From Escherichia coli (GTDB lineage: Bacteria; Pseudomonadota; Gammaproteobacteria; Enterobacterales; Enterobacteriaceae), in assembly GCF_003991155.1 (NCBI RefSeq), contig NZ_CP031293.1: 64,000 bases of DNA; one strand, written 5' to 3'. Each line of letters begins with the position of its first letter. Position 1 is the stretch's first letter. A model generated the notes under the pieces. It made no database searches. It saw nothing but the letters and a program-made list of their open reading frames with translations, and was not told the DNA's origin. Positions 53,832-60,595 of this stretch are shown here, in pieces. The translations under genes and the position numbers were made by a program.

Positions 53832-55823
53832 TCAGAACGTATACTCGATACCTGCCCAGAAATTGCGACCTTCTTCAATAAACCCTTCACTGTAGGCATA
53901 TTTGGTATCAAACAGGTTATTGACCGACGCATTGACGCTGAAGCCATGACCTAAGGTGTAATCGGCTCGAATGTGGGTCACCGCAAAACCGGCGGCTTTT
54001 TGTGAACCGTCACTGTTGCTGTAGCTGGAGGAACGCGCCTCTTCCGACAGCGTTACGCTTAACGGCTCCCACGGTTTGAGAGTCATCCATGCGGTCATTG
54101 TCTGCGTTGGCAGATCGGTTATCTTGCCGATGTCTTTGCGTTTGGCGTCAGCGTGGATCAGGGCGTAGCTCAATCCTACATCCAGTATATTGCTGATTTT
54201 CCCCTTAATACCGGCATCCAGACCGCTGTAATCCACCGTGCCGCTGTTCTGATTTTGAATGGTATCGGCATCGATATTGTGCGAGAGGATGGCATCACTC
54301 ACCCGGTTATAGTAAACGCTGACCTCAAACCCCCAGTCGTGCGTGAAGGCACCATTCCAGGTTAAATCCACCCCGCGCGCGCGTTCCGGTTTGAGCTGCG
54401 GGTTAACAATCGCTATCTGGTTATACGCAGGTTTGGACGTGGTATAGCGTTCTTTCAGCGTCGGAAAGCGTGTGCGGTCATAGTACGAAAGCGCCAGCGT
54501 GTCTTCATTGGCAAAGTGGTATTTCCCCATCACCTGCCAGTTAAAAGCTGACTGATTGTTGTCGTCATAATGGGTGATACTGCCATCTTTCTCATGTTTT
54601 TTCGCTTCTACGCTATCGCGCCAGTCATAGCTGATTCCAGCCACGACATCGACATTATCGGCAGCAGCCCATTGATATTCACTGGCGAGCGACCAGGTAC
54701 GATCTTCATAGCGATCGTAAGCGGCGTGCGGCGCACCTTTTTCCCGGTGTACGTCATCTTTCCAGTTAACGGCAAACGACAGCAGATCGTTTTCACGCAC
54801 ATCGGCTGCCAGTTGTAACCCGGCACCGTCGCTGTAATCGGAATAATGGCTGTAGCTGCCTTTTTTATTTTTCAAATCAGCCAGCGAGTTGTACATCATT
54901 AGCGTATTTTCAAAGGTGTCGCGATACAGCCGACTTTTCAGGGTAAAACGATCGTTTAGTTGGGTCGTTCCCTGATAATAAAAACTTTCTTTGTCATACT
55001 CTGGCCACTGCCAGTAGCGTGATTTTTGACCACTATTTCCACTGTATGGCGGGTTATCTTTTTCACCATCCTGCTTAATGTAAGTCAATGTGTATTCATC
55101 GTTTTCGCGTGGTGTAAAACCGAGCTTCACAATGCCGCGTTTATCATCAGCCGATGAATTAATCATCTTGCCGTGTTTGCCTGCAATATCATTATTTACA
55201 CCATGCGGCAGGCCGAGAAAATCCTGCTTTAGCTGGCTACCGCTGACTTGCAAATACCCCAGATCGCTGCTGGCGGCAAATGAAGCATGCATATCGTAGG
55301 CATTGTCCTGGCTACGGCTCCATCCCTGGCGATATCCCAGACTTGCTTCCAGAGGTTTTGTTGGCTTCTGGGTGGTGATATTAATGGCTCCGCCCATCTG
55401 ATTAGGCCCCTGAAGCAGCGACGAATACCCTTTGGAAACTTCAACTGCCCCCAAATTGTTGGTCAGAATCCGCGCCAGATCGAGGTTGCCGTCATAGGGA
55501 ACATAAATGGGCACACCGTCGAAATAGACTGGCACCTGACGACTATCAAAGCCACGAACTTTGACCTGTTCTTCGTTGCGGCTACCTGACTTTTGCAGCA
55601 CCACGCCGGGGACGACACTTAATGCCTGAGCGACATTCTGTTTATCCAGGGCCTTCATGGTGGGTTGATCGAGAACGGTGGTCGTCGTCGATGATACCGG
55701 ACTGGACCATACGGTCAGCGTGTCACTCTCCTGAGCCGCTACGGCCTGCTGGGTAAAGGCAAGTGATAATGCTGTGCAGAGATAACGTTTTTTGAGTCTC
55801 ATAGAATAAATTCCGTTTAACAA
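53832..55823 (-). CDS. TonB-dependent outer membrane receptor
   Basis: 663-aa ORF with signal peptide, plug domain and C-terminal ...AGIEYTF beta-barrel terminus; last gene of a six-gene minus-strand operon. Confidence 0.8.
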   Translation of the reverse strand: MLNGIYSMRLKKRYLCTALSLAFTQQAVAAQESDTLTVWSSPVSSTTTTVLDQPTMKALDKQNVAQALSVVPGVVLQKSGSRNEEQVKVRGFDSRQVPVYFDGVPIYVPYDGNLDLARILTNNLGAVEVSKGYSSLLQGPNQMGGAINITTQKPTKPLEASLGYRQGWSRSQDNAYDMHASFAASSDLGYLQVSGSQLKQDFLGLPHGVNNDIAGKHGKMINSSADDKRGIVKLGFTPRENDEYTLTYIKQDGEKDNPPYSGNSGQKSRYWQWPEYDKESFYYQGTTQLNDRFTLKSRLYRDTFENTLMMYNSLADLKNKKGSYSHYSDYSDGAGLQLAADVRENDLLSFAVNWKDDVHREKGAPHAAYDRYEDRTWSLASEYQWAAADNVDVVAGISYDWRDSVEAKKHEKDGSITHYDDNNQSAFNWQVMGKYHFANEDTLALSYYDRTRFPTLKERYTTSKPAYNQIAIVNPQLKPERARGVDLTWNGAFTHDWGFEVSVYYNRVSDAILSHNIDADTIQNQNSGTVDYSGLDAGIKGKISNILDVGLSYALIHADAKRKDIGKITDLPTQTMTAWMTLKPWEPLSVTLSEEARSSSYSNSDGSQKAAGFAVTHIRADYTLGHGFSVNASVNNLFDTKYAYSEGFIEEGRNFWAGIEYTF

Positions 55824-55827
55824 AGAA

Positions 55828-56682
55828 TTAAATAGAGGCTGCGGGTTGCAGACTGACTTTAATGTCAGCTGGTGTCGCGTAATAAGGCGCGGAGGTAATA
55901 AAAAGGCGAATGCCGCAGTCGAGGTAATTTTTGAGTGTTGTCAGATTAATTCCGCCGGTCAGAGCCAGCGTGCAGTGAGGAGCCAGCGACGGTGCTATTT
56001 GCGCAATTTCAGTTGCCTGTTGCGGATTAAATTTGTCGAGCTGAAGTACGTCTGGTTGCGCGCGTAACGCGGCGATTGCCTCTTTCGGCGTGTCGGCTTC
56101 AACAACTATTTTCTTCTCGGGTGCGTGGCGACGTAACTGATTGATTGCGCCTGACCAGTCCTGATTGTCATGAAGAAAATGACGGTGGTTGGCAAACAAT
56201 AATATGGTTTCCGCACATCCGGCACGATGAATCAGTCCTCCGGCAGCCAGAATTGCCTGCGAGGCCAGTAAGCGGGTGCCCGGAATTGCTTTTCGGGTGC
56301 AGGCGATATTGCCATCAGGGTAACGTTCACGAAGTAACGCCAGCATTTGAGCGAGATAATCAGAAACACCGCAACTCCACTCCAGCACATTCTGGACTGC
56401 CTTCCATCCCTGATGAAGTGCTGCGGCATTACCTTGCGCACGGATTAGCCGCTGACCCGCGTTCGCTTGTGAACCGTCGCTGACTGCGTCATCAATAGTT
56501 AATCCCAGCGTAGTTAACATCTTACACGCGACAGAAATTCCGCTGACGCAGCCGCCCTGACGGTGAAAAAACTCTATATAGCCATGCTGGTGTCCAATAT
56601 TTAATGCTCGCGTGGTCAGGTCACCGCCCTGGATATCTTCCAGAAGTAACGCATCGATTTGTGCCTGAGAAAGGAAAATCAT
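55828..56682 (-). CDS. ModD-family protein (nicotinate-nucleotide pyrophosphorylase-like fold)
   Basis: 284-aa ORF resembling the QPRTase/ModD family; 4-nt overlap with the upstream methyltransferase gene. Confidence 0.55.
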   Translation of the reverse strand: MIFLSQAQIDALLLEDIQGGDLTTRALNIGHQHGYIEFFHRQGGCVSGISVACKMLTTLGLTIDDAVSDGSQANAGQRLIRAQGNAAALHQGWKAVQNVLEWSCGVSDYLAQMLALLRERYPDGNIACTRKAIPGTRLLASQAILAAGGLIHRAGCAETILLFANHRHFLHDNQDWSGAINQLRRHAPEKKIVVEADTPKEAIAALRAQPDVLQLDKFNPQQATEIAQIAPSLAPHCTLALTGGINLTTLKNYLDCGIRLFITSAPYYATPADIKVSLQPAASI

Positions 56683-59236: not shown

Positions 59237-60258
59237 TAGCTCGCCACCAATTTTTGATAGTCGGCGTCACTGAGTGAACAATGCCAGAACAGTTGGGCAT
59301 AATGCTGCATGTCACTTTTAAACTGACGATTGATGGCGGGATCCAGCCAGGCGTGAAGTCTGCGTAATCCCAGAAGACGGTTGATTCCCGGCGGGGCATC
59401 CAGCCAGCCAAAGGGCAGGCCACTTAAAAATAAGATGCGTTGTTCCGCAACCGCTTTCACGCCCTGCCAGAGAGGATCACGACGAATAAAATCTGCAGTA
59501 ACGGCCTCCTGAACCAGAATAATATCCGGCTGCCAGCGCAGGAGATTTTCCATGGAAACCTGTGTCAGACCGTGGCGATCGGCTATTTGCGCGACGTTAT
59601 GCAAACCTAATAATTCCGCCGCCTCGGTATGCAACGAACCCTGTAAGCCCGTTTCCAGCCCTCGAGGACCGCGCGCAGCATAAAAGCTGAGGTTAGCGGC
59701 GGGTGAGGTGGCGAATGCCTGAGCTTCACCAACGAAGCGGCTGGCGAGATTGGCTTGTTCTGCGGCGCGGTGCTCTTCGCCTAACGTTTTGCCAAGCGTT
59801 GTTAACTGTTCTGCTGATTGTTCCAGTTTCCCGTTAAGCAATAACCAGGGTATTTGTGTCTGTTCGCTAACCTGCCGTGCCTGGGAGATCCAGGTTTCAT
59901 CCGTATTGCCGCAATCAACGACCAAATCGGGATGTAACGCCATAAGCCCTTCCAGCGAGAGTGTGCTGGCGCGCCCGGCGAGTCGTCCCAGCCTGGGGAA
60001 CTGGCGAATGTGCTCTGGCAATGGAATTAATGCCTGACGGGCAAAATCAAAAGAGGAAAAACCGACCATTTTTTCTGGCGCGACAGCCAGCAATAGTAAA
60101 TCGGCGGGCGCGCCTGCGCTGACGATGCGTGTAATGTTTTGGGCTTCGGGAAGCGTCAGTGAGGCCCAGAATTTGACTGATTGTGCAAAGGACGGCAGAT
60201 GATGCAGGAACAATGTCGACGCAAGAATCTGTGTAAACCTCCGTCTGGTTAGTGACAT
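59236..60258 (-). CDS. periplasmic substrate-binding protein (FecB/BtuF class) with Tat-like signal
   Basis: start placed at MSLTRRRFTQILAS... (twin-arginine motif followed by hydrophobic stretch and AQS cleavage site); 1-nt overlap with the permease. Confidence 0.65.
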   Translation of the reverse strand: MSLTRRRFTQILASTLFLHHLPSFAQSVKFWASLTLPEAQNITRIVSAGAPADLLLLAVAPEKMVGFSSFDFARQALIPLPEHIRQFPRLGRLAGRASTLSLEGLMALHPDLVVDCGNTDETWISQARQVSEQTQIPWLLLNGKLEQSAEQLTTLGKTLGEEHRAAEQANLASRFVGEAQAFATSPAANLSFYAARGPRGLETGLQGSLHTEAAELLGLHNVAQIADRHGLTQVSMENLLRWQPDIILVQEAVTADFIRRDPLWQGVKAVAEQRILFLSGLPFGWLDAPPGINRLLGLRRLHAWLDPAINRQFKSDMQHYAQLFWHCSLSDADYQKLVAS

Positions 60259-60595
60259 AAGTAATATCCTGATAATTAAAACCGCTATATACTTACACAT
60301 ATAGCGAAAAAGATCATGTTTGATGTCAAAATTTGTCTAAAGAGACAGAATGATTTGCTTGTTTCTTAAATAACACTTTGTTCCACAAGAAAATTGTCAG
60401 GGAGAATGGGGAGTGGGGGGGAAATATAAATAGAGGTGTAATGATTAACAAGTTGATAAAATAAAAATAAAATCTTCTCTGATAAAAGAAAATAAAGGCA
60501 TAGACCGTAGAAAGAGTGGTATTTGGTATTTCGTGGTGAAGAAAGAGCAATGCCAATTTTATGCACGTAATGGCATTGCTCGATATACAGTAAAG

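Follow-up and report, generated by a model that had tools for sequence, protein, structure and literature searches.

The prrA-modD-yc73-fepC island of Escherichia coli as a predicted ModE-regulated, TonB-dependent molybdenum acquisition system

Background

Outer-membrane receptors for metals other than iron can be placed under the regulator of the cognate metal, as are ZnuD, under Zur, for zinc, and OprC for copper. We know of no TonB-dependent receptor that has been assigned to an oxyanion of molybdenum or tungsten, and to our knowledge no energized path across the outer membrane is described for a metal in oxyanion form. In Haemophilus influenzae, molybdate and tungstate are taken up by MolBC-A (HI1470-HI1472), a type II importer of the ATP-binding cassette (ABC) class (PMC4031551). 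The molCBA genes adjoin modD (HI1473) (PMC3928620), and molB is repressed by molybdate (PMC4031551). The subject of this analysis is a six-gene cluster of Escherichia coli, located between ymgE and treA in a stretch of 64,000 nucleotides (contig NZ_CP031293.1, referred to below as the window), which encodes a TonB-dependent receptor, an ABC importer and two cytoplasmic enzymes, one of them a ModD, and which is proposed here to acquire molybdenum.

The cluster itself is already known and named. The same genes at the same ymgE..treA position have been described as prrA-modD-yc73-fepC, and its carriers include uropathogenic (UPEC), avian pathogenic (APEC) and adherent-invasive (AIEC) E. coli as well as O157 lineage I (PMC1890555, PMC12928451). 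A role in iron uptake was only "proposed" or given as "possibly" the case, and the cluster has been treated as a putative marker of iron uptake and virulence (PMC1890555, PMC12928451). The island is the same as OI#55 of O157 (ECs1693-1699). No link of prrA-modD-yc73-fepC to ModE or to molybdenum was found in the literature searched.

Results

Gene content and layout

Six co-oriented open reading frames lie on the minus strand between ymgE (plus strand, end at 53782) and treA (60596-62296). All six gene models are the same as those in the RefSeq annotation of an E. coli chromosome that is 100% identical. In the order of transcription they are:

59236..60258, minus strand: periplasmic binding protein with a twin-arginine (Tat) signal, class III, Peripla_BP_2, MolA-like fold
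58256..59236, minus strand: FecCD-family permease of a type II ABC importer, MolB-like (PDB and NCBIfam matches)
57501..58259, minus strand: ABC ATPase, MolC-like, GTG start (PDB and NCBIfam matches; the RefSeq gene model concurs)
56679..57491, minus strand: class I S-adenosylmethionine-dependent methyltransferase ("yc73")
55828..56682, minus strand: ModD, a paralogue of quinolinate phosphoribosyltransferase (NadC) and not NadC itself (TIGR01334)
53832..55802, minus strand: TonB-dependent outer-membrane receptor ("prrA") (Pfam Plug and barrel)

The binding protein and permease genes overlap by 1 nt, the permease and ATPase genes by 4 nt, and the methyltransferase and modD genes by 4 nt, while a gap of 9 nt separates the ATPase gene from the methyltransferase gene. 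For the receptor, the most likely start codon is the ATG at 55802, which RefSeq also uses and which follows a weak GGAA Shine-Dalgarno sequence, and this start leaves 25 nt between modD and the receptor gene; the gap would be 4 nt only with a TTG start at 55823. A preliminary description of this locus, made by a model from the sequence, had reported tight packing with gaps of at most 10 nt. The overlaps were found as reported, and the limit on the gaps fails at the junction of modD and the receptor gene. The family names it had given were upheld for every gene by NCBIfam and Pfam, and the unit is, as it had been described, a co-oriented set of six genes in which an import route from the outer membrane to the cytoplasm is combined with two cytoplasmic enzymes. 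The description of the unit as accessory relative to K-12 was also borne out, a K-12-like genome having ymgE-ycgY-treA at the locus, and no experimental characterization of the function of the operon was found in the literature, in agreement with the earlier statement that none was known.

A conserved ModE operator upstream of the operon

The region upstream of the first gene had been pointed out as the place to look for operator motifs and riboswitches. A scan of it found a conserved ModE operator, and neither a Fur box nor a riboswitch. Two elements are of importance here:

60281..60308, minus strand: predicted ModE operator, TTCGCTATATG-TGTAAG-TATATAGCGGT, with the core inverted repeat CGCTATAT-N8-ATATAGCG, 22 nt upstream of the first ATG
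60324..60329, minus strand: -35-like hexamer TTGACA, a perfect match read from the sequence, 17 nt upstream of the operator core

Sites were scored against the E. coli ModE consensus ATCGNTATATA-N6-TATATANCGAT, which has 20 specified positions (quoted in PMC545781). The operator at 60281..60308 fits this consensus at 17 of the 20 positions and is the sole site in the 64-kb window with a score of at least 15. As a positive control, the same scheme was applied to the mod-moa region of K-12 (35 kb), where the established modA and moaA operators scored 16/20 each and were the only sites that reached 14. The modA box of K-12 is found 18 nt before the modA ATG.

Phylogenetic footprinting showed that the site is conserved. 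A box scoring 14-20 was present in 49 of 50 orthologous upstream regions, compared with 13 of 375 control windows that scored 14 or more, and the orthologous boxes were mostly 15-35 nt upstream of the start codon. About 50 orthologous loci, belonging to more than 12 genera, have the box in the corresponding position. Where a spacer of 100-300 nt parts the receptor gene from modD, as in Proteus, Providencia, Morganella, Pectobacterium, Serratia H1w and Y. enterocolitica, a second box (16-19/20) was found directly before the receptor gene. The box is found before the methyltransferase gene at loci reduced to methyltransferase-ModD (Edwardsiella) and to methyltransferase-ModD-receptor (Intestinirhabdus, 20/20), and two boxes were seen directly upstream of the lone modD genes of Cedecea colo and of a metagenome-assembled genome (MAG) of the Alcaligenaceae. 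Each module of the operon is, in other words, independently tied to ModE boxes or to molybdenum genes in several lineages. The operon is predicted to belong to the ModE regulon and to be bound by ModE-molybdate.

Because the TTGACA hexamer is 17 nt upstream of the operator core, the -10 element and the transcription start fall inside the ModE box. A TTGAC(A/T/C) element is similarly near, and upstream of, the box in several other genera. A ModE box that covers the -10 region and the start has the geometry of repression found at modA, and suggests the same direction of regulation here. A generic promoter scan did not call a promoter at the ModE box, and the promoter and terminator counts from such scans were not above shuffled expectation.

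Regulation by iron through Fur was rejected. The best Fur box score upstream of the operon was 13/19, in an AT-rich stretch, and the distribution of Fur scores over the 50 orthologous promoters was that of random windows. An Rfam scan of 53400-60900 with E values up to 1 gave no match, so there is no cobalamin, molybdenum cofactor or other riboswitch in that region. The best Fur-box-like matches of the window are far from the operon, one of 15/19 at 2303-2327 and overlapping ones of 13-14/19 at 18001-18031.

The transporter proteins

The permease and ATPase are most similar to the inner-membrane components of the H. influenzae importer. The best PDB match of the permease was MolB HI1471 (2nq2_A; 9e-65, 222 bits), 47 bits above the next, with FhuB at 175, HmuU at 168 and BtuC at 146 bits; its NCBIfam matches were to BtuC/FecCD-type models. 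For the ATPase, the best single-domain PDB match was MolC HI1470 (2nq2_C; 9e-36), and the NCBIfam matches were to heme/corrinoid/FecE-type models. The binding protein starts at 60258 with MSLTRRRF, which contains a twin-arginine motif and follows an AGGA Shine-Dalgarno sequence, and its residues R5 and R6 are nearly invariant in the orthologues. It has the Pfam domain Peripla_BP_2, and its PDB matches were 4pag (1e-25) and then MolA HI1472 (1e-7). MolA is the closest characterized fold; siderophore, heme and B12 binding proteins were more distant.

The receptor has both Pfam domains, Plug (7e-21) and TonB_dep_Rec_b-barrel (1e-33), a TonB box (DTLTVW) after the signal peptide, and a C-terminus, ...EYTF, that ends in Phe. 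The combination of plug, barrel, TonB box and terminal aromatic residue identifies it as a TonB-dependent receptor. In one E. coli variant, of 720 aa, PilZ/YcgR-type Pfam domains are fused to the Plug and barrel, which suggests a deletion or a misassembly that joined ycgR to the receptor gene across ymgE.

Models of iron families in NCBIfam all scored far below their cut-offs (FecB 32 against 320; TonB-siderophore 127 against 223). Two other uptake systems were considered and rejected. A cobalamin or corrinoid system of the BtuB-FCD type was rejected on the lack of an Rfam match and on the BtuB, BtuC and BtuF matches, which were well below those of MolB/MolA type. The fit system (fitABCDE-fitR) was rejected since it needs two permease genes and a divergent RpiR-type FitR, and the island has one permease and no regulator; fit is located elsewhere, at ygiN..parE (PMC2593036, PMC12928451).

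ModD and the methyltransferase

ModD scored 501 bits with TIGR01334 (cut-off 179) and 136 bits with the NadC model TIGR00078, which is below the cut-off of 198. In an alignment with the quinolinate phosphoribosyltransferase of M. tuberculosis (1qpn), the residues equivalent to R139/K140, H161/R162, E201 and D222 were kept, R105 was replaced by K94, and K172 was replaced by F163, which is invariant. We take the kept residues to be those for phosphoribosyl pyrophosphate (PRPP) binding and catalysis, and K172 to be the one that binds quinolinate. The assignment of ModD as NadC was rejected on the NadC score and on the invariant Phe in place of K172, and the protein probably binds PRPP or a phosphate-like anion and not quinolinate.

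The genes found next to modD in other genomes are those of molybdenum transport and use. Yersinia alsatica has a ModA/TupA-type binding protein-permease-ATPase-ModD cluster of overlapping genes with a 19/20 box, and the same layout was found in Gilliamella. In Treponema, modD is followed by ModB-like and ModC-like genes; in an Alcaligenaceae MAG, modE-mop-modCBA is divergent from modD; and in Acerihabitans, modD is found between alternative-nitrogenase-type and Mop-like genes. A modDABC operon with a ModE box is known from Geobacter (PMC545781).

The methyltransferase matched the Pfam families Methyltransf_25/31/12/11 and has the fold of a small-molecule methyltransferase. A weak ArsM-type match was found in NCBIfam (E 1e-4), and there was no specific similarity to TehB or ArsM. 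The preliminary description had suggested that the imported compound is modified after uptake. The methyltransferase and ModD could in principle be an obligate tailoring pair for such a modification, an idea that was rejected on two observations: the importer of Shewanella (below) is found without ModD, and ModD is found without the methyltransferase beside ModABC-type genes. The two enzymes are consequently separable modules. In one Shewanella strain the methyltransferase stands alone. The methyltransferase tracks the TonB receptor and the type II import route, and ModD tracks molybdenum transport in general.

Distribution and conservation of the island

The island was present in 2,139 of 5,426 complete E. 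coli genomes (about 40%). In island-negative genomes ycgY (4061-4501 of the K-12-like locus) is found between ymgE and treA, so the locus has two alternative occupants, and a simple insertion into empty DNA does not describe it. Conservation beyond E. coli was surveyed with a ModD profile scan of one genome per GTDB species, which returned 74 loci. About 55 of these 74 ModD-bearing loci of other species had all six genes in an unchanged order, at identities down to 45-55%, which excludes a chance arrangement. The genera with this order included Escherichia, Citrobacter, Raoultella, Klebsiella (K. indica), Serratia, Pantoea, Erwinia, Pectobacterium, Yersinia, Proteus, Providencia and Morganella. 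Across the Enterobacterales, modD and the methyltransferase gene are kept with the transporter genes, and the doubt raised in the preliminary description, that these two genes might not be conserved with the others, found no support.

There were signs of decay of the cluster in host-restricted lineages, such as a truncated, plug-less receptor (486 aa) in Shigella flexneri. The binding-protein, permease and ATPase matches in Citrobacter koseri were fragmentary. Edwardsiella keeps only the methyltransferase and ModD, plus a remnant of an ABC-methyltransferase fusion, and given this remnant the pair looks like a decayed cluster. A contig of 3,168 bp (JAIJJM010000374.1) from a MAG named "Collinsella sp." carries genes for the ATPase, the methyltransferase and ModD whose protein products are 98-100% identical to those of E. 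coli, and is almost certainly E. coli contamination in the bin of this actinobacterium.

Relatives of the receptor in Shewanella, Pseudomonas and Yersinia

Orthologues of the receptor with a ModE-type box of their own directly upstream were found in Proteus, Providencia, Morganella, Pectobacterium, Yersinia, Shewanella and P. aeruginosa. Shewanella has a five-gene version of the cluster, binding protein-permease-ATPase-methyltransferase-receptor, without ModD (genes 5263-11004 of the locus), with 19/20 boxes before the binding-protein gene (5214) and before the receptor gene (8952). The core receptor orthologue of P. aeruginosa (CP114086.1; 45% identity, 9001-11004 of the locus) has the box CGTTATGTA-N6-TGCATAACG at 8961-8988, scoring 16/20, 14 nt before the ATG. 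This receptor gene is overlapped by a small gene with an Oxidored_molyb domain, adjoins moaA and narIJHG, and stands without a dedicated binding protein, ABC importer or methyltransferase. We know of no substrate that has been assigned to this P. aeruginosa receptor beside moaA. In Y. enterocolitica, a gene with a MOSC domain (YiiM-like; 10973-11620 of the locus) comes directly after the receptor gene and is another neighbor related to the molybdenum cofactor.

The distribution of these boxes raises the prospect, for which we see roughly even odds, that the PrrA receptor founds a family of ModE-controlled, TonB-dependent transporters of molybdenum or tungsten in the Enterobacterales, Shewanella and P. 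aeruginosa, joined in the Enterobacterales to a MolBC-A-like importer, a methyltransferase and ModD.

Flanking sequence features

The genes ymgE and the receptor gene converge, and in the 49 nt that separate them one further element was read from the sequence:

53795..53824, no strand given: hairpin GCGGATAG-N14-CTATCCGC

It is possibly a shared terminator of ymgE and the receptor gene, though its T-run is poor and the evidence weak, and the generic terminator scan did not call it. On the other side of the island, the spacer between treA and the operon (60300-60595, about 300 bp) is AT-rich, with a GC content of 0.39-0.41 compared with about 0.52 nearby. It includes runs such as TTTATTTTTATTTTATC, and there is a promoter-like site on either strand around 60423-60473.

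Discussion

A model of molybdenum uptake

The operon is read here as a ModE-repressed, TonB-dependent system for the acquisition of molybdenum (or tungsten), with a probability of roughly 0.6. The annotation as an iron uptake cluster is most likely mistaken, and the genes would take up molybdenum and not iron. Molybdenum (or tungsten) is the metal indicated because there is a conserved ModE operator, because there is neither a Fur box nor a riboswitch, and because the ABC components are closest to MolBC-A. The preliminary description had suggested import of a metal chelate or of a pyridine- or corrinoid-like compound; the metal part of this suggestion can be narrowed to molybdenum (or tungsten), and neither a corrinoid riboswitch nor similarity at the level of BtuB was found. 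That ModE binds, in which direction it regulates, what is transported and what the enzymes do are all deduced from sequence and genomic context.

In the proposed mechanism, ModE-molybdate would bind the inverted repeat over the -10 region and start of a single promoter when molybdate is plentiful and keep the operon off, in the manner of modABC. Under molybdate scarcity, the six genes would be transcribed as one message, with coupled translation. The receptor, energized by TonB, would then carry the molybdenum species across the outer membrane, and the Tat-exported, MolA-like binding protein would pass it to a type II ABC importer of MolB2C2-like composition, while ModD and the methyltransferase would act in the cytoplasm. 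Free molybdate or tungstate is the most likely cargo, since in P. aeruginosa the receptor orthologue lacks an ABC partner dedicated to it and since MolBC-A can carry the bare oxyanion.

Several points weigh against this model. Both the binding of ModE and the transport of molybdate are predictions. The -10 hexamer is weak or unclear. ModE is an activator at certain E. coli operons, moaABCDE for example, so the sign of regulation here has geometry as its one basis. Molybdate is small enough to pass through porins, which leaves the need for a receptor unexplained, and it is not obvious what a phosphoribosyltransferase paralogue and a methyltransferase would do in the uptake of an oxyanion. The identity between the binding protein and MolA is only 22%, and the structures nearest to the binding protein (4pag, 4hn9, 4ovk) have no known ligand, so its ligand could differ from free molybdate. 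The affinity of MolA itself is low (about 100 uM), a poor fit with TonB-coupled scavenging (PMC3928620, PMC4031551), and in publications the cluster is annotated as iron uptake (PMC1890555, PMC12928451).

Alternative explanations

The alternative that survives best, although we consider it unlikely, is a ModE-regulated operon whose cargo is either molybdenum in complex with an organic ligand (a "molybdophore", for example a catecholate-molybdate) or a molybdenum-related organic cofactor or precursor, the ligand being processed after uptake by the methyltransferase, and perhaps by ModD, so as to release or neutralize it. All of the ModE evidence fits this explanation equally well. Bulky chelates or cofactors are the usual cargo of TonB-dependent receptors and type II ABC importers, and the next characterized neighbors of the binding protein, which is itself distant from MolA, bind metal chelates (CeuE of H. 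pylori) or are YiuA-like. The methyltransferase, with its small-molecule fold, accompanies the receptor and ABC importer even where ModD is missing, as in Shewanella. However, the P. aeruginosa receptor without dedicated partners suggests that the product delivered to the periplasm can be used by an ordinary ModABC, and ModD also occurs beside oxyanion transporters of ModA type, so ModD at least is not specific to a ligand. No genes for chelator biosynthesis are nearby, and the precedent of MolBC-A shows that this type of importer can carry a bare oxyanion (PMC4031551).

It is also conceivable, but improbable, that ModE-molybdate activates the operon, which would then have a role under plentiful molybdenum, such as the import or detoxification of tungstate or another oxyanion analogue, with the methyltransferase methylating a toxic metalloid. 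The ModE-activated moaABCDE has a box that scores like the box of this operon, and the methyltransferase, with its weak ArsM-type match, could in principle act on metalloid oxyanions, but specific similarity to TehB or ArsM is lacking. MolBC-A works at high molybdate, but molB of H. influenzae is molybdate-repressed (PMC4031551). The position of the box, 22 nt before the ATG and just downstream of TTGACA, is like that at the repressed modA and unlike an upstream activator site, and an energized receptor makes little sense when the ion is abundant.

Uptake of a ferric siderophore or other iron compound is the least credible explanation: the receptor, Peripla_BP_2 protein, FecCD permease and ATPase do have the generic architecture of an iron-chelate importer, the RefSeq name of the binding protein is "iron ABC transporter substrate-binding protein", and prrA-modD-yc73-fepC is termed putative iron uptake (PMC1890555, PMC12928451), but those papers say no more than "proposed" or "possibly", a conserved ModE operator is found in place of a Fur box, the iron-family models are far below their cut-offs, and the binding-protein folds for siderophores, heme and B12 are more distant than that of MolA.

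Significance

Within the literature searched, what appears to be new is the placement of the cluster in the ModE regulon, its kinship with MolBC-A, and a ModE-linked family of receptors that reaches Shewanella and Pseudomonas; a curated regulon database may already list the site. If the model is correct, a marker of "iron uptake" virulence in UPEC, O157 and APEC is a misread molybdenum acquisition factor, and database names such as that of the binding protein need to be corrected. Molybdenum would join iron, zinc, copper and nickel as metals with a TonB-dependent pathway across the outer membrane. Molybdoenzymes, including the reductases for nitrate, dimethyl sulfoxide and trimethylamine N-oxide and the formate dehydrogenases, drive the anaerobic respiration of Enterobacteriaceae in the inflamed gut and urinary tract. 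ModD, which has been unexplained since the 1990s, and its partner methyltransferase would become directly testable in a tractable organism, and the presence of the two would imply a novel cytoplasmic chemistry of molybdenum handling or ligand processing.

Comparison with known systems

MolBC-A is the closest of the described importers. MolB and MolC are the nearest solved relatives of the island permease and ATPase, the binding proteins share the class III fold, modD is part of the cluster in both cases, and molybdate repression of molB has its counterpart in the ModE box of the island. In contrast, the H. influenzae cluster as described has neither a TonB-dependent receptor nor a methyltransferase, and it includes an additional modA-like gene and a further ABC pair (PMC3928620). 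The two binding proteins are about 22% identical, and the low affinity of MolA differs from the scavenging that coupling to TonB suggests for the island.

The island resembles modABC and the ModE regulon of K-12 in the class of the operator, in the distance from box to ATG (22 nt in the island, 18 nt at modA) and in the predicted repression. ModABC differs in being a type I importer with a class II binding protein (ModA) and in lacking a receptor or enzymes, and the modD of the E. coli island is unrelated to the mod locus. ModD has the two-domain fold of NadC (QRPTase_N/C) and keeps the PRPP and catalytic residues, whereas its genomic context is consistently related to molybdenum and not to the synthesis of NAD. 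With ZnuD/Zur and OprC the island would share a TonB-dependent receptor under a non-iron metal regulator for uptake of a scarce metal, the metal in this case being an oxyanion, of molybdenum or tungsten.

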